Assembly (NCBI GenBank): GCA_964458565.1 | Contig: CAYWJO010000025.1 | Span: 30,434 to 48,828 of the forward strand | DNA length: 18,395 bases | Origin: an uncultured archaeon | GTDB lineage: Archaea; Asgardarchaeota; Thorarchaeia; Thorarchaeales; Thorarchaeaceae | Reading direction: 5' to 3' | In this document: positions 1 through 9,301 of the stretch, piece after piece | How positions within the stretch are numbered: position 1 is the first letter of the stretch | Layout of the letters: each line of letters begins with the position of its first letter | Program-made: the position numbers and the translations under genes | The notes under the pieces: model-generated | Seen by the model: only the letters and a program-made list of their open reading frames with translations | What the model was told of the DNA's origin: nothing | The model's database searches: none

Positions 1-1851
1 CAGGATGGCACAGAAGGAAAAGTGGCAAGCTTGACCGTAGGGGATGAAACTGGAAGAATTCGTTTGGTATTATGGGATGATAAAACACAAGCGGTTATCG
101 ATGGTGCCCTTGAAGCAGGGATAGTCATACAAATCAGGGGTGGATATGTAAAGAAAGGTCTTGGAGATGATCTAGAAGTCAATTTAGGAAGAACTGGATA
201 TATCAATCCATTAGATGACTATGATATGGAGGATCTCGAGATTGACCTAACAGATGCAGAAATTGTAAAAATTACAGACTTGAAAGACCGTATGTTCAAC
301 ATTACTGTTAAGGTCAAAATTGGGAATATCTATCCACTATCAACTTTTACCCGAAAATCGGATGGATCTGAGGGTAAGGTATTGAGTATACAGGCATCGG
401 ATGAAACAGGCAGTACGCGGATAGTCTTTTGGGATGACAAGGCAGAACTCATGCAGGATGCTAAAATTGGTGAAGCGATTAGTGTTTCTGGAGCCAACTC
501 AAGAGAGGGTCGCCAAGGTGATATTGAGGTTCATGCAGGTAGAGCTGCAATCATTCAGAGAGAGATAGATGATGATATCGATGCTGTTTCAATAGATACT
601 GTTAGAGTATCCGCTGAGCCCCTTGGAATGAAGAGCATATCCGAACTCACAGTAGATATGCAAGATGTGGATATCGAGGGAAAGGTGGTTTCTGTCTATG
701 AGGTAAGAACCTTCGAACGAGAGGGAAAACAGGGAAAGGTACAGAATGTCATGATTGCTGACGAAACCGGAAGAATTCGTGTGACATTTTGGAATGATGA
801 TGTGGATAAAATCAAGGGTCTTGATGAGGGAGACGTAATTCGCCTCAAACATGGTTATTGTAAGGAAGGATATCGTGGTGGAGTGGAGTATCAAATCGGA
901 ACCAGAGCAGAAATAGAAAGAAATCCCAAAAATTCAGATTTGAAATCCTTGGACATAAGTACCGTTCAAAGTCTTGTAGACACCATCGGGATGAAGAGTA
1001 TATCTGAACTCACAGCTGATATGCAGGACGTGGATATTGAGGGGAAAGTGGTTTCTGTCTATGAGGTAAGAACCTTCGAACGAGAGGGAAAACAGGGAAA
1101 GGTACAGAATGTCATGATTGCTGACGAAACCGGAAGAATTCGTGTGACATTTTGGAATGATGATGTGGATAAAATCAAGGGTCTTGATGAGGGAGACGTA
1201 ATTCGCCTTAAACATGGCTATTGCAAGGAGGGTTATCGTGGCGGAGTGGAGTATCAAGTTGGATTCAAAAGCGAAATCGAAATGAATCCTGATAACTCCA
1301 ATCTGGACTCTTTAGACATAAGTGACATAGAAAAAATACCTACCAGACAATATGGTCGAGTCATGATAAGTGACATAACAAGTGAATCTGAAAATGATTC
1401 TGTTGAAGTGAGCGGTATTGTTGTAAGGGTGCCACAGTCTAGTCCAATATATCTTGCTTGTCCAGAGTGTAGGAAAAAAGTACAAGAAGATAGTGGAAAG
1501 TATCTATGTTCTAATTGTGGAGAGATCAAGAAAGCAGAGGCCCGCATGCTTTACAAGGTAACAATCGATGATGGATCAGGAACCATAAGGGTCACACTAT
1601 TTGGTGAAGCTGGTGAAAAGCTTCTCCAGATGACAGCAGAAGAAGCTCAGAAAATTATAGAAAAATCTGGAAACCCAAACAAGCCGTTTGACGAAAACGG
1701 TGACAAAATGTTAGGACGATATGTTATTGTCAATGGAAAAGTCACCAAATACCGTGATTCCCTAGACATATCTGCGGCAGGACTGGACTTTGTTGATCCT
1801 GAGAAGGAAATACTTAGAATGAAGGGACAAATAGAAGAGCTGACCAACTAG
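1..1851 (+). CDS. rpa: Replication protein A large subunit (multiple OB folds plus C-terminal Zn-finger OB, RPA70/RPA1-like); 5'-partial
   Basis: Frame is open from base 1 (QDGTEGKVASL...), so the gene starts upstream of the window. Repeated OB-fold signature D(E/D)(T/G)G.(I/T)R(L/I/V)..(W/F) occurs five times. CPEC-x13-CSNC zinc finger lies in the last OB fold, as in RPA70 DBD-C. Confidence 0.92.
   Translation, partial: QDGTEGKVASLTVGDETGRIRLVLWDDKTQAVIDGALEAGIVIQIRGGYVKKGLGDDLEVNLGRTGYINPLDDYDMEDLEIDLTDAEIVKITDLKDRMFNITVKVKIGNIYPLSTFTRKSDGSEGKVLSIQASDETGSTRIVFWDDKAELMQDAKIGEAISVSGANSREGRQGDIEVHAGRAAIIQREIDDDIDAVSIDTVRVSAEPLGMKSISELTVDMQDVDIEGKVVSVYEVRTFEREGKQGKVQNVMIADETGRIRVTFWNDDVDKIKGLDEGDVIRLKHGYCKEGYRGGVEYQIGTRAEIERNPKNSDLKSLDISTVQSLVDTIGMKSISELTADMQDVDIEGKVVSVYEVRTFEREGKQGKVQNVMIADETGRIRVTFWNDDVDKIKGLDEGDVIRLKHGYCKEGYRGGVEYQVGFKSEIEMNPDNSNLDSLDISDIEKIPTRQYGRVMISDITSESENDSVEVSGIVVRVPQSSPIYLACPECRKKVQEDSGKYLCSNCGEIKKAEARMLYKVTIDDGSGTIRVTLFGEAGEKLLQMTAEEAQKIIEKSGNPNKPFDENGDKMLGRYVIVNGKVTKYRDSLDISAAGLDFVDPEKEILRMKGQIEELTN
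625..1257 (+). repeat. Intragenic direct duplication of one OB fold (625-894 and 988-1257, offset 363 nt)
   Basis: Direct comparison: 685-845 is identical to 1048-1208 (161 nt). The flanks differ mostly at synonymous positions. Confidence 0.95.
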
Positions 1852-1871: not shown

Positions 1872-2555
1872 TTAGATGGTTTTAGCAATGTGAGCAGATG
1901 GAGCGTACAATCCAATCTGTACCTCCTTTATTTGTTCCAATTCTTGTAACTTGATAACTTTAAGATGAATTTCAGCGGTGGAATATCCCCGGGACTTGAA
2001 ATATTCTGCGATTTCACGTATAGGAACTCCTTCGTCTGTAGCGTGTACTCGGATATATTGAAGTATCTGCTCATGAAGCTCTACTGCAGAGATGGTATCA
2101 TCTTGGAGGGGAGATTCCTGATGTTCGTTGGATTTTGGTAGTTCGGGAGTTCTGCCAGTAAGTTTGGTCATAGTATGATATCTGTGTAGTAAATGTAGTT
2201 CCATGTAGTGTGAATCAGTTACATCCTGAACAATTTCAGGAACTACATAAATTTCGTCTTGGTACTTGCGTATCTTTCCTATTGTCATCACCATGGAGCC
2301 TAGTTTGGTTTCTTCAAGGAGTCTAGCATCGGTCTTCCAAGCTTTGATTCGAATATCACCTGTTCCATCATTTATCGTGATACTTGAAAACCCATCCTTA
2401 TGAAACGGATCTTTGCTCACTGTACCCACAAGTACGACTCTTCTCAACTCGACTCCTTCGTTTGTAACTACATGAGGGCTTTCATTCTTCCCATAAGTTC
2501 CATGTATTATATCAGATATTGTTGCCCTGATAGCAGTAATTCTTTTCCGAACCAT
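1872..2555 (-). CDS. RPA32/RPA2-like small subunit (OB fold plus C-terminal winged helix)
   Basis: RRVVLVGTV...ITINDGTGDIRIKAW...VMTIGKIRKYQDE OB signature, a linker, then a wHTH-like C-terminus (EQILQYIR...GVPIREIAEYF...IKEVQIGLY). ATG at 2555 preferred over TTG at 2576. Convergent with rpa. Confidence 0.8.
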   Translation of the reverse strand: MVRKRITAIRATISDIIHGTYGKNESPHVVTNEGVELRRVVLVGTVSKDPFHKDGFSSITINDGTGDIRIKAWKTDARLLEETKLGSMVMTIGKIRKYQDEIYVVPEIVQDVTDSHYMELHLLHRYHTMTKLTGRTPELPKSNEHQESPLQDDTISAVELHEQILQYIRVHATDEGVPIREIAEYFKSRGYSTAEIHLKVIKLQELEQIKEVQIGLYAPSAHIAKTI

Positions 2556-2701
2556 TCTTGTCGACCACAATTGCAAGTTATTACACAGTTATAATGGTTG
2601 GATGAGTAATAAACACCGCAAAAATGGGATCTGTTGTCATTTGCTGGCTTCAATTAATTCATGTAAAGGAATATGAGATTGTCAATCATGGGTGATTGGC
2701 A

Positions 2702-2833
2702 TTATCTTGTTATCTCAATGAATTGATTAATTGCATCTAGAAATATATCGACTTCCTTTTGATTGTTATAGAGGTAGAAGCTAGCTCTGACTGTTCCCTT
2801 AGTTGGATCAATTCCAAGCTGATAGTGAAAAGG
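2702..2833 (-). pseudogene. sufS: Orphan 3' fragment of cysteine desulfurase sufS (43 codons plus stop), displaced copy
   Basis: Translates PFHYQLGIDPTKGTVRASFYLYNNQKEVDIFLDAINQFIEITR*, 29/43 aa identical and gap-free against the end of the sufS gene at 6986-7117. No start codon or upstream sufS sequence. Confidence 0.92.
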
Positions 2834-2924
2834 ACCTGTGCACAACAAACAATGTAGCAATGAAATTGTATAAACATAAGAAAAATAGATTCATTTGTTT
2901 ACTATGCTTAAAGGTCCGAAAATG

Positions 2925-3587
2925 TTAGACCATCCTTAGTTTCTCAATTTTTTTATTGACATCACTAAGACGTGTCTTTGTATCTTGCAGAATCTTCTTG
3001 ACTAAAACTTCAAAGTCCATTATTGTCTTGGAAACATCGTCTGGAATTGGAGATAATCCCGAATCAATTCCTTCAATGATTCTACCGTTCCATTTGTAGA
3101 GATGGTCAGCCATTTTTTCATATTCATTATAGATTTCGTTGTTAATTGCTGCAAGTTCTGCGATTTTTTGAAGAAGATCGTTACGTCTTTGCTTCCAAAG
3201 TGAATGGCTGGTTGTAGAGGTTAAATTCATAATATCTGCACTAGTTACTTGATGATTCAGTAAATCCTTGATAGGATTTAGAAGGCTATTAAGCTGCTCA
3301 AGCGCTTTTAGTTGTAGCTCTAACTTTGCTTCTTCACGTTCTAATCGACGAATTTCTTCGAAACGGTCCTCTCGAATCCATTGACGCTGCTGTATAAGGT
3401 ATGATATCAATGATATAGAACCAGTTGTTATTGAACTTGCCACTGCACTTGCTAGAGTTGAGTCAATAGAGTTACCAAGAATTATTGTAAGAGTAGGTGC
3501 AATTAATAGTGCAACTACCATGGCACCCAGTATGAATTTCCAATAGAAACCATTACCATCTTTCATATGGTTATTATTCCCCCACAT
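2925..3587 (-). CDS. Hypothetical membrane protein (two N-terminal TM helices plus helical/coiled-coil region)
   Basis: 220-aa ORF with hydrophobic segments FILGAMVVALLIAPTLTIILG and LASAVASSITTGSISLISYLI, followed by charged heptad-like sequence. Confidence 0.65.
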   Translation of the reverse strand: MWGNNNHMKDGNGFYWKFILGAMVVALLIAPTLTIILGNSIDSTLASAVASSITTGSISLISYLIQQRQWIREDRFEEIRRLEREEAKLELQLKALEQLNSLLNPIKDLLNHQVTSADIMNLTSTTSHSLWKQRRNDLLQKIAELAAINNEIYNEYEKMADHLYKWNGRIIEGIDSGLSPIPDDVSKTIMDFEVLVKKILQDTKTRLSDVNKKIEKLRMV

Positions 3588-3651
3588 TGATTTCGATTAT
3601 AGCACGGATTTGATGTCAGGTGGATGATGATAAAATCTCTTTTGGAAGAAA

Positions 3652-5751
3652 TTACCACTTATCATTAATGTATTCAGATGCCTTGTCTGTATCCAAATGT
3701 TGAGTTCCACTCGAAGTTCTATGCCCGAAGAGTGTTTTCTGTGTTTTTCTTAGTTCCTTTAATGAATCCGGAATTTTAACAAATGCAGGTTTTGTTGCTT
3801 TTTGGACTTTCACATGACAAATCAATTTTCCTCTAACAAACTTAAACTGAACATTGAAGAAATCTAAATACATCTCTCCGATGAATTTTCGAACAATATC
3901 TGTTAATCTTAGGTTAAATCCATCCGAATTTTGTTTGTTCCTTGCAAGGGTTTTGAGATCACGCTGTATGCCTAAAACATGTCCTTCATTATTCACTCCA
4001 ATTAGTAGATTACCACCTTTATCAGTGTTCATGAATGCTGCAATAGCATCTGCAACTTTGAATTCAAGAACTGGATTTGGTGTCTTAGTTTCATAGTCGT
4101 AACGGAGTGATGCCTTAAACTCACAAAACTTGTTTTCACCCTCACGTATGAGCCGATAGATTGGTGCGTCAATAGGCTCGCCAAAAAGAGTTTCTAGGAT
4201 TCTTTCAAATCTAACTGCAAGAAGTGTGCAAGAGCCTTTATCCTTCCCACCAATTGTCCATTTTATAACAAGTTTATCTTCATCCAATGTGTTTGGAATG
4301 ATAGTCATAATATAATATATTGCTGCTTTACCATTCCATGAGTAAACTCCGGACCATTTAGATGCTGAAATAAATGGTATAGTTTCTACAAGAGTCTGCG
4401 TTAAATGAAAATGTGCATTTTTCTTAACACGGATAGACCATTCTTCATCAATTCTGTTATTCTTTATTTCTTCTTTGAGCTTTGTTGGAAATGTTAGATT
4501 TTCAGGGAAATAGTCTGGAAATAATCTCAGATCATTATGACGAATACAGAATCCATATCTTGTGTAAATCTCGTCTAAAATATCAAGATATTCTCCCAAT
4601 TTGGGATATTTTCTTTTCAATTCAGTCATGCTGAGAACGCCATTTGATGCACTAGCTAAAATTGGAATTTCTGATCGGAGATTGTTAAAAGCTTCATCAT
4701 TAATAATAATCATGTCAGATTGTTCAGGATAATATTCAATTCCGCCCTCAGTAGAGAGATTGCTTATCAAGAATCGTGCATGCTCTTTTGGTATGGATGT
4801 TGAATATTCAGAGTTGTATCTATCAACAAGTTCGTCCAAAGTTATTTTTGGAATTCTCTCATCAGCAAGACTCTCCAATATTTGACGAATTCTGTCAGCG
4901 CTTTCTAGTCGAATTATTAGACCTGCATTATCCCAATCAATCAACTGTAAAATCCGATTTTTTAGGACATTAATATTGGTTCCATAAAGAGGACAAGCTT
5001 TAACGTAATCAACTATTCGACCTGACTTAATCAAATCATCCATTTTTGACTTTGCTCGGGATTCATCCATCTCATTATCTATGAATGTTTCTACAAAAAT
5101 TATCTTCTTTGAAATAGTAATAGACTCTTCAATATCTTCAAGTGTGGTCAATGCTCTATCAAGAGTTGTTTTATCTGTTTGCTTGAAGAATATCAAAATT
5201 AATTCGGAGTCGAATAGAAATGGGATGAAGGTACTCATAACAGCTTGTTGTCCACCATGGTCATGAAGAATTATCCGATGATTTGTACTGCAATCTAAAT
5301 CAAGATTCCAAGTCCAAATCTTCTTTCCGAATGTAGATTGTTCAGATCCAGGAGTCCCAGCTATGAGTTGATTGCATAACGTTGATTTTCCAGAACCAGT
5401 ATGCCCAATTAAACTAATTTTCTGATGTTTGAATTTAATTGATTCAATTGGAACTTTTATTTTCGAGATGCTCTGGCGGTAGAATCCACCTGGAGTTAGG
5501 TAGAGCATTGTGTTATTATAAACCCAAATTCCTACACAATGAACCTCTTGAATTCTCTCAGCAGTGCCAGTAGCTATATCAAACTGAATTATCTCGCTTT
5601 TTGTCCCTGCAAATACTGTTGCACCATCTTCTGAGAATGTTACACAGCGTCCTTGACCAGTAGCGAGGCTTGCACGAAAAGCAGGTCTAAATATTGGGTC
5701 ATCCGATTTCTCATCAGCTTCATAATATAAGATGTCACCCGTATCTGTCAC
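3652..5751 (-). CDS. Roc-COR GTPase with C-terminal Schlafen/AlbA_2 domain and N-terminal beta-propeller remnant; probably 5'-truncated
   Basis: P-loop GHTGSGKST, G2 STFG, Roc-type G3 HDHGGQ, G4-like ETFID, then a COR-like region (A.FLISNLSTEGGIEYY). AlbA_2 motifs GENKFCEFKAS and IAAFMNT.KGGNLLIGV. WD40-like blade (CVTFSEDGATVFAGT...IIQFDIATG). Frame stays open to 5826 without an ATG. Confidence 0.8.
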   Translation of the reverse strand: MTDTGDILYYEADEKSDDPIFRPAFRASLATGQGRCVTFSEDGATVFAGTKSEIIQFDIATGTAERIQEVHCVGIWVYNNTMLYLTPGGFYRQSISKIKVPIESIKFKHQKISLIGHTGSGKSTLCNQLIAGTPGSEQSTFGKKIWTWNLDLDCSTNHRIILHDHGGQQAVMSTFIPFLFDSELILIFFKQTDKTTLDRALTTLEDIEESITISKKIIFVETFIDNEMDESRAKSKMDDLIKSGRIVDYVKACPLYGTNINVLKNRILQLIDWDNAGLIIRLESADRIRQILESLADERIPKITLDELVDRYNSEYSTSIPKEHARFLISNLSTEGGIEYYPEQSDMIIINDEAFNNLRSEIPILASASNGVLSMTELKRKYPKLGEYLDILDEIYTRYGFCIRHNDLRLFPDYFPENLTFPTKLKEEIKNNRIDEEWSIRVKKNAHFHLTQTLVETIPFISASKWSGVYSWNGKAAIYYIMTIIPNTLDEDKLVIKWTIGGKDKGSCTLLAVRFERILETLFGEPIDAPIYRLIREGENKFCEFKASLRYDYETKTPNPVLEFKVADAIAAFMNTDKGGNLLIGVNNEGHVLGIQRDLKTLARNKQNSDGFNLRLTDIVRKFIGEMYLDFFNVQFKFVRGKLICHVKVQKATKPAFVKIPDSLKELRKTQKTLFGHRTSSGTQHLDTDKASEYINDKW

Positions 5752-5870
5752 ACCTGCAAAGGCTTTGTTTTCAAACCAACATATATCCTCTAAACAAGTG
5801 TTAGCACATTTTTCATTCGAACGATTTCAAAACCAGTCTGGTAGATGAAGCAAAATCCCGACTTGGCGGC

Positions 5871-6989
5871 ATGGGGGACCGCAGCTTTAGTCGCCTCATG
5901 GGGCAACTCTCAGACTATGATGTGCCAAGTGGAAAGTATGCTGAACGTACAGAACTAAAGAATTTCAGACATTATCTCAGGGGAGAAACCCTTCATTATG
6001 TCACCGACTTAACAGGCGATGATTTAAGACAACTCGAATCGAAAATTAGTCATCTAGCATGTATTGGTTCAAAGAGAGGCCAAGCAGGTCATATTAGGAA
6101 CCCGAAGTTCTCTGAAAATTTGGAGAGGATACGAACTCAGATTATGGGGAGTATGCTTAGTGATGGCCATCTAAGACCTAAATTGACAGCACTATATTAT
6201 GAAAAGGATCCAGATAGACTTGAGAGATTCAAAGAGATAATGAGTCAGATTGGAGATATTCAGTTTACAGAAACAATACGAAAAGATGGAACTGTTCTTG
6301 GAATGCCTGTTGTTGTTGGAAAGCTCATTGAACATTGGAGAATGCCAATTGGGGATAAGAGCGTAATCAATCCAAAACTTCCGGATTACATCATTAATGG
6401 ACGACCGGAATTAATGACAGAATATCTCAAACAAATGGTTTCTGAGGATGGTAGTTTTACGGATAAAGGAACTGGTTGGAGATTCAAATGGAATCGAGCA
6501 GTTGTACTTGATTGTGATAAAATGGAAGAATATGGATTAAAATCAAGAATAGAATCCAATGATATTGCATTTCTAATGGACTATGGAACCCGTGAAATAC
6601 GAAATTATAGAAATCCACATTCACGGAAAGAGGATGTTTCACCAATAATTACAATGACTATCAAAGAGCTTCGAGAATTGAAAGATGATGACAATTCCGA
6701 GGTTTCTCAAAGAGCTCAGAGCCTCAACAATTGCATCATAAATAATCGGAGTAATTTAATGGATGGAGAGCGACATATTGCAAATAATGTGGGAATAGAA
6801 ACAACAGTGACCCCAATGACCATTACACTTTATTCGGATTCAGGAAGGGTTTCTGTATTATGGGAAGGTAGGTCTCAGACTCAAACAGATGCTTCCATCT
6901 GGGGATTGATTGCCCCGCCGGATCACAAACGTAAGCTGACAAAGGTTGCTGAAGCAATATCACAAGGTCTTGTTAAGTTGGAGAATTAG
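5871..6989 (+). CDS. Double-motif LAGLIDADG-like endonuclease domain protein; possibly 5'-truncated
   Basis: Two LAGLIDADG-like helices (IMGSMLSDGHL and YLKQMVSEDGSF) about 95 aa apart with intervening ...GDKS..NPKLPDYI. Frame is open back to 5805. Stop overlaps the sufS stop by 4 nt. Confidence 0.6.
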   Translation: MGDRSFSRLMGQLSDYDVPSGKYAERTELKNFRHYLRGETLHYVTDLTGDDLRQLESKISHLACIGSKRGQAGHIRNPKFSENLERIRTQIMGSMLSDGHLRPKLTALYYEKDPDRLERFKEIMSQIGDIQFTETIRKDGTVLGMPVVVGKLIEHWRMPIGDKSVINPKLPDYIINGRPELMTEYLKQMVSEDGSFTDKGTGWRFKWNRAVVLDCDKMEEYGLKSRIESNDIAFLMDYGTREIRNYRNPHSRKEDVSPIITMTIKELRELKDDDNSEVSQRAQSLNNCIINNRSNLMDGERHIANNVGIETTVTPMTITLYSDSGRVSVLWEGRSQTQTDASIWGLIAPPDHKRKLTKVAEAISQGLVKLEN

Positions 6990-8227
6990 GAACTTGCCTC
7001 TATCAATTCCCACATAGCATTCAGAAATATATCGACATCATTCTCATTATTGTATAGATAGAAACTTGCTCTTGCTGTACCCTTCGTTGGGCTTATTCCC
7101 ATCTGATAATGAAAAGGGTGTACGCAATGGGCGCCAGAACGAATCATTACAGCGTATGAATCATTGAGATATGTTGCCACATCGTGTGCTGAGTCCACAG
7201 TATCGACAATAAATGTACAGAGACCGGTTTTAATGTTGATATCATCGGTTCCGATTATTCTGATATGCTCGTTATCCTTGAATTCTTTCAGAACCTTGGA
7301 TAAGAGGGTTCGTTCATGTTTTTCGATCTCATGCATGCCCAATCTCTGGAGATATTCGGCTGCTGCACCAGCTCCTATAGCGCCAGCATAATTCTGTAAT
7401 CCAGCCTCATACTTCTCAGGAGGTGGCAAGTATTCAGGAATGATACGCCCATTTTCGTATCGCACATCACTTACTGTATCGCCACCTGTGAGGAACATAT
7501 CCATGCTCTCTAGATGCTCGGATTTCCCATACAGCAAACCCATTCCTGTAGGTCCACACATCTTGTGAACGGAGATTGCACTAAAGTCGACATCGGTTTT
7601 TTTCATGCTGAGTGGGTGATGTGGAGCATATTGTGCATCATCGGACATCACAAGAGCACCTCTATCATGTGCGATTTCAACAATTTCTTCAATAGGTGCA
7701 ACAGTCCCTGTGACATTTGATGAGTGTACAACCGATACAATTCTAGTCTTGTTGTCAATTGTTTTCTTCCAATCTTCAATATCAAAAGTACCATCAGGTT
7801 TGGATTCGATAACCTCAATCCTTAGTCCGTCTCTCTTTGCTCGTTCAACAAAAGGCAATGACCCACTGTGATGTTCAAGAGATGTTGTTACGATTTTTGC
7901 GTCTTTGGGGATATCAATACATCTTGCAACAATGTTTAGCGATTCCGTTGCATTTCTCGTCCAGATGCATTCCTCTTCATGTTCTGCATTGATGAAACTC
8001 CTGAATTTTTCCCTAGCCTGGGTATATGCATTCGATGCCTCCTCGCCAAGTTTATGGATGCTTCGTCCACCACATGCAGGAAATACCTCGTAGTATTCAT
8101 TCATTGCTTGTATGACCTGTTTTGGTTTAAGTGCCATACATGCACTATCAAGATACACCAGTGGATGTCCATTGATCTCTCTCTTAAGAACAGGAAAGTC
8201 TTCTCTCACATCTAACATATTGATCAC
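6986..8227 (-). CDS. sufS: Cysteine desulfurase, SufS/class V PLP aminotransferase
   Basis: VREDFPVL...LVYLDSA, EHHS, DDAQ, PLP-lysine SVHKMCGPTGMG, catalytic RSGAHC and RASFYLYN motifs. Confidence 0.95.
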   Translation of the reverse strand: MINMLDVREDFPVLKREINGHPLVYLDSACMALKPKQVIQAMNEYYEVFPACGGRSIHKLGEEASNAYTQAREKFRSFINAEHEEECIWTRNATESLNIVARCIDIPKDAKIVTTSLEHHSGSLPFVERAKRDGLRIEVIESKPDGTFDIEDWKKTIDNKTRIVSVVHSSNVTGTVAPIEEIVEIAHDRGALVMSDDAQYAPHHPLSMKKTDVDFSAISVHKMCGPTGMGLLYGKSEHLESMDMFLTGGDTVSDVRYENGRIIPEYLPPPEKYEAGLQNYAGAIGAGAAAEYLQRLGMHEIEKHERTLLSKVLKEFKDNEHIRIIGTDDINIKTGLCTFIVDTVDSAHDVATYLNDSYAVMIRSGAHCVHPFHYQMGISPTKGTARASFYLYNNENDVDIFLNAMWELIEASS

Positions 8228-9067: not shown

Positions 9068-9301
9068 TTGAGTTTTGTAACGTTATTAAATCAGGCATTT
9101 GAAAACGTAGGCGCTAATATTGCAAATCTTGATGAAGTCAGGGATTTATTAGCAAAAATTGAGAATGAAGCGGATTCCATTAGTCATGTGATTTCATTAC
9201 TTGAATTAGAGATGGCTGAAGTCGATATAACTCTTAGAACAGATATACGCATCTTGATAAATGAATTCAAACACCTCTCAGAAGAGAGGCGAACTTCGTA
9301 A
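9068..9301 (+). CDS. Hypothetical helical protein, translationally coupled to lhr
   Basis: 77 aa, strong AGGAGGAGG SD at 9051-9059, TAATG stop/start overlap with the helicase. Confidence 0.65.
   Translation: MSFVTLLNQAFENVGANIANLDEVRDLLAKIENEADSISHVISLLELEMAEVDITLRTDIRILINEFKHLSEERRTS

Follow-up and report, generated by a model that had tools for sequence, protein, structure and literature searches.

A candidate tail-replacing homing element at the sufS gene of a Thorarchaeaceae chromosome

In archaea, inteins and introns are the known settings of homing endonuclease genes. Gene-end swapping is described, in the literature that we searched, only for the WHO elements of yeasts and for fungal mitochondria, and no archaeal case of tail-replacing homing was found. 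Here we describe a window, that is, the whole stretch of 18,395 nucleotides (nt) that was analyzed (contig CAYWJO010000025.1 of assembly GCA_964458565.1, from an uncultured member of the Thorarchaeaceae whose genome, G000, comes from salt-marsh metagenomes), in which the 3' end of the cysteine desulfurase gene sufS occurs twice and a gene for a LAGLIDADG-fold protein lies against the copy inside the gene. We consider it very probable that the locus is occupied by a tail-replacing homing element, of the WHO or mitochondrial mORF type, that resides in an archaeal chromosome and uses the active-site codons of sufS as its target.

WHO elements of Torulaspora and Lachancea are chromosomal genes of LAGLIDADG type located just downstream of FBA1 (Coughlan et al. 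2020, eLife, PMC7282813). During homing, the 3' end of FBA1 is replaced by a resistant copy and the old end is pushed downstream, where the fragment is proposed to act as a homology arm and where repeated events build rows of fragments; cleavage has been demonstrated by experiment (PMC7282813). In fungal mitochondria, mORFs are described from atp6, atp9, cox2, and nad3 of Glomus (Beaudet et al. 2013, PMC3630166), and the same paper cites an atp6 mORF of Allomyces macrogynus. Their layout is a foreign C terminus, then an open reading frame (ORF) of LAGLIDADG or GIY-YIG type, then the stranded native C terminus, with the native copy matching close relatives and the inserted copy diverged (PMC3630166). 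More distantly comparable are the free-standing homing endonucleases of T-even phages, such as mobE, which are reported to carry out intron-less homing by cutting a neighboring conserved gene in genomes without the endonuclease and to co-convert flanking markers (PMC2790892). Within the Asgard archaea, a homing-endonuclease-like gene has been reported in a Heimdallarchaeal element beside a 16S gene (Wu et al. 2022).

The duplicated sufS end and the adjoining endonuclease gene

The sufS gene of the window (6986-8227, minus strand, 413 amino acids [aa]; Pfam Aminotran_5, E 2e-113) is 67 to 79% identical to sufS in 24 of the 24 other family genomes searched. An earlier sequence-only reading of this DNA had pointed out that the last 43 codons are present again, in the same orientation, at 2702-2833 (minus strand), and this was borne out: with sufS as the query, tblastn against the whole assembly recovered the orphan copy at E 8.9e-15, so the match is not due to chance. 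The two tails share 29 of 43 aa and 70.5% of nucleotides and are equal in length, and the orphan has its own stop codon and no frameshift. That reading let the repeat begin just after the catalytic Cys motif; the duplication stood, whereas the boundary had to be moved by 9 nt, to the Cys codon itself, because the orphan retains Cys-Thr-Gly (TGC ACA GGT, 2834-2842) before Pro-Phe-His, against Cys-Val-His (TGC GTA CAC, 7118-7126) in the gene, and the duplication therefore covers 43 to 46 codons. By sequence comparison, the in-gene replacement tail extends from Cys369 to the stop codon (6986-7126, minus strand) and carries the allele AHCVH-PFHYQMGISPTKG. The displaced native tail (2702-2854, minus strand) is of the type (H)C-TG-PFHYQLGIDPTKG...IEITR, ending in its stop codon, and has a 9-nt insertion at the Cys codon within 2841-2851. 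The element leaves the original end of sufS displaced 4.3 kb downstream. Uninterrupted identity between the tails reaches at most 14 nt (GTCGATATATTTCT on the sufS strand, at 2750-2763 and 7034-7047), in the middle of the repeat and away from its boundary.

Divergence between the two tails (proportion of synonymous differences, pS, 0.68; of nonsynonymous differences, pN, 0.20) is like that between tails from different genera of the family (pS 0.83, pN 0.21). The tails are therefore diverged orthologues, not products of a recent local duplication, and one of them came from a distant sufS. Codons 361 to 400 of the window gene are nearest to genus g3 (L002, 81% nucleotide identity), unlike the remainder of the gene, which agrees with a foreign tail. 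A sliding-window search for a co-conversion tract, for which few close relatives were at hand, gave this shift to g3 over the last ~50 codons as its sole signal. The window sufS is a hybrid of a native body and an element-borne end.

The gene abutting this end, P0002 (5871-6989, plus strand, 372 aa), is convergent with sufS and overlaps its stop codon by 4 nt. The suggestion that its product is LAGLIDADG-like was upheld by structure prediction: a model built on 36 homologues (predicted local distance difference test [pLDDT], 89.9) consists of two alpha-beta-beta-alpha-beta-beta-alpha halves, with helix 84-98 and helix 179-193 each followed by strand, strand, helix, strand, strand, and helix, and the halves are joined by two packed LAGLIDADG helices, as in LAGLIDADG homing endonucleases. 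Foldseek against the Protein Data Bank (PDB) returned 63 matches at E <= 0.001, all of them LAGLIDADG proteins and nearly all homing endonucleases, including intein endonucleases, I-Tsp061I, PI-SceI, I-DmoI, I-OnuI, and I-SceI. The Foldseek probability was 1.0 for intein endonucleases, I-Tsp061I, PI-SceI, and I-DmoI, and the TM score to I-DmoI, taken by target, was 0.6 to 0.67. WhiA, a non-cutting LAGLIDADG relative, is also among the matches. Residues D98-G99 and E192-D193-G194, at the ends of the two LAGLIDADG helices, are nearly invariant in the 36 homologues, and this conserved acidic residue with its glycine argues for an active nuclease over a WhiA-like regulator. A profile search of PDB sequences with the family gave no match.

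An exhaustive HMMER search placed the relatives of P0002 in ~300 clusters at 50% identity, all unnamed. Members are mostly 600 to 1600 aa long and share a conserved N-terminal domain of ~250 aa, with helix-turn-helix modules added in the longer ones; a confident model of this domain (pLDDT 86.6) had no informative match in Foldseek against the PDB or in a wide VIA-align search (best Z, 4.6). P0002 retains only the last ~37 positions of the domain profile, in the reading frame 5805-6986, and no remnant of the domain was found elsewhere within the window; P0002 is a 5'-truncated member of this two-domain family. The N-terminal domain breaks off in the divergent intergenic region between P0002 and the next gene (5752-5870), exactly where the cargo starts. 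The window genome has a second family member, of 472 aa and 27 to 30% identical to P0002 (L024:7265-8683, G000:C77), which is located at a contig end and is followed by an overlapping 247-aa ORF of no known family on the same strand, with no convergent gene end adjoining.

The same element at sufS and related elements at other genes

When the sufS end was used to search 86 genomes of the taxonomic family, a second true orphan tail came up, in a different genus (genome G068). In that genome, a gap of 5 nt separates sufS from a convergent endonuclease gene encoding 669 aa (P0158). Over its C-terminal 366 aa, the product shares 45% identity with P0002, and the orphan tail lies 140 nt beyond the start of the endonuclease gene, with no other gene between the tails. 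A third member of the lineage occurs on a metagenome contig (L072), 5 nt from a sufS stop codon; its identity is 68% to the G068 protein and 44% to P0002. As the remaining family members are at most 38% identical to P0002, one endonuclease lineage is tied to one position in sufS, and the orphans of the two genera start at the same codon, to within ~9 nt. All three occupied sufS genes have the allele AHCVH-PFH..Q.GI[PS]. WHC[V/T]G-PFHYQ.GID is the type found in the orphans and, for genus g6, in most of the empty genes, with WHCVG-PFHYQMGIDPKKG as the native g6 type.

The sequence-only reading had predicted that relatives would show empty sites, and for the G068 element one relative, G065, does so exactly. 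Its sufS is 94% identical to that of G068 at the nucleotide level, and the two loci align except for 2.17 kb inserted in G068 and bounded by the tails, the alignment stopping at the end of the in-gene tail and resuming at the start of the orphan. In its proximal half, the G068 orphan matches the native tail found in G057 at 92% of nucleotides and bears GIDPKKGT, the signature of the genus, whereas the in-gene tail has GIPVERGT; this marks the orphan as the native one. This minimal element contains only the endonuclease gene and no integrase, which the earlier reading had named as a finding that would speak against homing if present in a complete island. A full second sufS paralogue, named in the same sense, was not seen at the site in any of the 86 genomes. 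What a tail-replacing element leads one to expect is thus observed in its layout (window and G068), in its exactly bounded presence and absence (G068 and G065), and in the recurrence of one lineage at one site (G000, G068, and L072), and the proposal of a homing-type element that brings its own tail to a conserved sufS site gains accordingly.

G065 and a further genome, G078, have no endonuclease gene and carry mosaic tails, of the in-gene type proximally and of the orphan type distally (94% nucleotide identity in G065, 89% in G078). Mosaics of this kind would remain if recombination between the two tails had removed the endonuclease gene; alternatively, they could stem from a homing event in which the crossover fell within the tail. 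Across the sufS genes at loci L002 to L051, codons 367 to 370 occur as two alleles of the active-site loop, AHC[VTA]H and WHC[VA][GA], which are mixed within genera g6 and g8, and the AHCVH allele is accompanied by GIP or GIS after PFHYQ. In some endonuclease-free genomes, AHCVH alleles may be footprints of past invasions.

Further candidates were set aside. A supposed orphan tail in G048 (C37:7300-7400) is a normal sufS end behind a run of N, the gap closing one codon before Pro371, and L073 is only a gapped sufS. In G075, C74 ends in a tail that starts exactly at Phe372, and the body of sufS is found on a different contig; this is an assembly break and no more than suggestive. The breaks within sufS in G075 and G048 may reflect a mixture of occupied and empty alleles in the samples.

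At the site of the window itself, the prediction of an empty allele was answered by a single junction. In run X5, from the same salt-marsh habitat, a contig of ~151 nt at depth 4 matches 2802-2842, the proximal part of the orphan including TGCACAGGT. Beyond that, its letters are the reverse complement of ...TATAGCGTCATGGTTAGATCTGGATGGCAT, whose translation, YSVMVRSGWH, belongs to the uninterrupted sufS body. After ...SGWH, the junction reads CTG-PFHYQLGIDP, which is of the orphan type. This short contig has the junction expected of an empty allele and comes from a related strain or species; the native origin of the window orphan is in this way partly borne out by sequence. The X5 contig lacks nine bases that the window orphan has at its Cys codon (CATTG[TTTGTTGTG]CACAGGT), and these may be a scar left by repair of the cut. 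No island-deleted form of the window strain was seen among the contigs compared with it.

Beyond sufS, the endonuclease gene is convergent with another gene, at most 65 nt from its stop codon, at 10 of the 20 family loci with a readable downstream neighbor; the window, L066, and L072 are arranged in the same way. The host genes encode or are rpS19, S-adenosylhomocysteine hydrolase (three genomes), an Lsm protein (three genomes), scpB, a ChsH2-like protein, the large subunit of a NiFe hydrogenase, and sufS. Orphan tails were confirmed at three hosts other than sufS, namely Lsm, scpB (one orphan), and S-adenosylhomocysteine hydrolase, and no integrase was found beside the cases examined at these three genes. 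Lsm orphans occur in five genomes, with two of them in G068, and all start at residues 113 to 119; they match the native tails of endonuclease-free genomes, whereas the in-gene tails of occupied genomes differ. At the S-adenosylhomocysteine hydrolase gene of G096, tail and orphan are identical at 106 of 106 nt and differ only at the proximal boundary. On the 3.3-kb contig that carries an endonuclease gene beside the NiFe hydrogenase gene (L026), no orphan tail was found.

Two orphan Lsm tails are stacked behind one endonuclease gene in G068 (L061:8308-8418 and 9124-9213, G068:C108) and likewise in G064:C111 and G078:C154, with small unknown ORFs between the tails. Such stacks would be expected from repeated homing; a profile search found no remnant of an older endonuclease gene between the Lsm orphans. 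In two other genomes (L059:1207-6731, G018:C42; L060, G003:C42), a member of 1474 aa is followed, with a 1-nt overlap, by an ORF on the same strand that covers only positions 172 to 512 of the methylmalonyl-CoA mutase profile. Here the endonuclease gene may split a methylmalonyl-CoA mutase gene, a different mode of insertion. The endonuclease family is present in 42 of the 86 genomes at 0 to 7 copies each and, in a sample of the phylum, in 4 of 30 families, and its copies are often at contig ends, fragmentary, or interrupted by stop codons. To judge from these genomes, this patchy distribution and decay are the pattern of a mobile, decaying selfish gene.

Passenger genes, flanks, and rival explanations

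Between the tails, the window holds two passenger genes in addition to P0002, on a stretch with 32 to 37% G+C compared with ~41% in the flanks. P0003 (3652-5751, minus strand, 699 aa) combines a Roc/Ras GTPase (Pfam Roc, 2.5e-8) with a C-terminal Schlafen AlbA_2 domain (SLFN_AlbA_2, 7e-12), and P0004 (2925-3587, minus strand, 220 aa) has a predicted membrane helix and a coiled coil and no family match. The description of this cargo as defense-like held as far as two passenger genes are present; no catalogued defense system was matched by PADLOC, which gave only weak P-loop-level matches for P0003 (mad8, 1e-4; HerA) and none for P0004. Atlas neighbors of P0003 are WD40-Roc proteins with TIR or DUF4365 effectors, at scores below 0.9, and a single full-length homologue of P0003 exists among the 86 genomes, with no P0004 homologue beside it. 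The domain make-up resembles that of conflict-system NTPases with effector domains, and a defense role would be a lead only. Both genes are absent from the minimal element of G068. They may have come with the element, or later while deleting the N-terminal domain of the endonuclease. The window element is a derived, probably decaying copy that lost this domain and has an AT-rich two-gene module at the break point. As the earlier reading had it, the island is free of integrases, with none in any of its ORFs by Pfam, and it contains no tRNA; a profile search of the cargo likewise gave no remnant of older endonuclease genes.

On the far side of the site, the conserved convergent neighbor of sufS (1-1851, plus strand) is 50 to 52% identical to a gene of 719/727 aa whose place in genera g6 and g8 is immediately behind sufS or behind the orphan tail. 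The RPA32-like OB-fold gene between the orphan tail and this neighbor (1872-2576, minus strand), which the sequence-only reading had expected directly behind sufS at empty sites, is therefore an extra gene of the window genome and not the conserved downstream neighbor. It has paralogues of 33 to 35% identity on contigs C46 and C70. The window contig also holds a second island (G000:C25:5541-8846, L091), bounded by two copies of the 3' end of glyA plus mazG. Inside are the ATPase and permease of an ABC transporter along with two small ORFs of unknown kind, and neither a member of the P0002 family nor an integrase is among them.

An insert between direct repeats would have the same topology if circular DNA, the remnant of a plasmid or virus with a sufS 3' fragment, had recombined with the gene in a Campbell-type event and had brought the LAGLIDADG gene along as a passenger. 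The AT-rich, rare cargo is as expected of imported DNA, and the glyA-mazG duplication encloses its transporter island on the same contig with no endonuclease gene recognized. We nevertheless regard such an event as improbable, since the same endonuclease lineage is found at the same sufS codon in three unrelated sources and is the sole gene of the insert in G068, the layout recurs with paralogous endonucleases at several other conserved genes, and tails 70% identical over ~140 nt are a poor substrate for unassisted recombination. Less probable again is a decayed integrase-type element, similar to e14 in icd, that has lost its integrase. It is known that integrases, on inserting into protein genes, can replace the 3' end, and the island does carry accessory genes; however, it has neither an integrase nor an integrase fragment, the compact 2.17-kb element of G068 has space for the endonuclease gene alone, and no integrase accompanies the Lsm, scpB, and S-adenosylhomocysteine hydrolase cases examined. 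The two sufS ends in the same orientation could finally be what is left of a tandem duplication, a decayed paralogue into which unrelated genes were inserted afterwards. This is scarcely credible given that none of the 86 genomes has a second sufS at the locus, that the orphan starts at the same codon in two genera, that synonymous divergence is near saturation, as between genera, and that G065 has the empty site.

Several observations weigh against a tail-replacing homing element. For the genus of the window, the only empty junction is the ~151-nt, depth-4 contig of run X5, part of which is nearer to the in-gene tail, and there is no full empty site for this genus among the genomes compared; moreover, no sufS tail in the databases is more than 67% identical to the window orphan. 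The three element-borne tails are not clearly nearer to each other than to other tails. Half of the family genes examined are not beside a convergent gene end, and tblastx at 1e-3 found no flanking repeat at nine further family loci with both flanks readable. The Pfam LAGLIDADG models stay below threshold on P0002, the best score on any homologue being that of LAGLIDADG_3 at E 0.007, and the ~250-aa N-terminal domain present in most members is missing from P0002, so this copy may be inactive. Lastly, as the 3' end of glyA is duplicated with no recognized endonuclease, tail duplications can probably also arise here in an endonuclease-free way.

Proposed mechanism and relation to known homing systems

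The unit of the element consists of a LAGLIDADG endonuclease gene and, abutting it tail to tail, the last ~45 sufS codons in a diverged version. The scheme with the best support is that put forward, and in part tested, for yeast WHO elements (PMC7282813) and described before them for the mORFs of fungal mitochondria (PMC3630166). In homing, the endonuclease would cut an element-free sufS of the type WHC[V/T]G-PFHYQxGIDP at or beside the catalytic Cys codon, and the break would be repaired off an element-bearing copy, with the sufS body serving as the upstream homology arm and the orphan tail as the downstream one. Replacement tail and endonuclease gene would thereby be copied in, the repaired gene would end in the element tail (type AHCVH-PFH.Q.GI[PS]) and have lost the site, and the old tail would be left stranded downstream. 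The anatomy, the fold, the recurrence of the lineage at one site, the presence and absence of the insertion in the sister case, and the native origin of orphan tails are observed; what we infer is the cleavage itself, where the cut falls, that the replacement tail resists it, and the manner and cause of the passengers' arrival. Around the junction, the in-gene tail and the native type differ at ~15 of 42 nt by hand count, and on the proposed mechanism the native allele would be cut and the replaced one resistant.

Because the orphan tail would be the downstream homology arm, anything between it and the endonuclease gene would be copied along. It is conceivable, if rather doubtful, that the gene ends hit by this family serve as integrase-free landing pads in Asgard archaea, with cargo co-copied at each homing. 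Were this true, the endonuclease would spread accessory or defense cassettes between species, and the ends of essential genes would be exchange sites comparable to integrons.

Gene-end-swapping homing would now be seen in Asgard archaeal chromosomes, in a large unannotated family that uses several essential genes. If this reading holds, it explains why core genes such as sufS have mosaic 3' ends and phylogenies that disagree, as well as assembly breaks at such sites and “integrase-free islands” in these genomes. The family would also be a set of natural nucleases, predicted to be highly specific, whose targets can be read from repeat boundaries.

Among the systems compared, the endonucleases of T-even phages differ from the sufS element in that they are not known to involve a duplicated or replacement gene end and belong to the HNH and GIY-YIG families. 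In e14, the end of icd is likewise replaced by an element-borne copy, but the replacement is driven by an integrase, which the sufS island does not have. Mitochondrial mORFs share with the sufS and Lsm loci of G068 the native orphan and the diverged in-gene tail; unlike the sufS element, they reside in organelle genomes, their ORF is usually co-oriented or in frame, and no passengers are reported. WHO differs in that its protein is an intein-zinc-finger protein, whereas the sufS enzyme belongs to a separate, unannotated family with a novel N-terminal domain and a LAGLIDADG core. The sufS endonuclease gene is convergent with its host gene and almost touches the stop codon, the window copy carries passengers other than the endonuclease and so adds an example of passenger genes inside a tail-replacing element, and the host is an archaeon with no meiosis, in which cleavage is predicted. 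In the layout of the element, in the mosaic alleles of G065 and G078, and in the double Lsm orphans, the archaeal elements are nonetheless like WHO.

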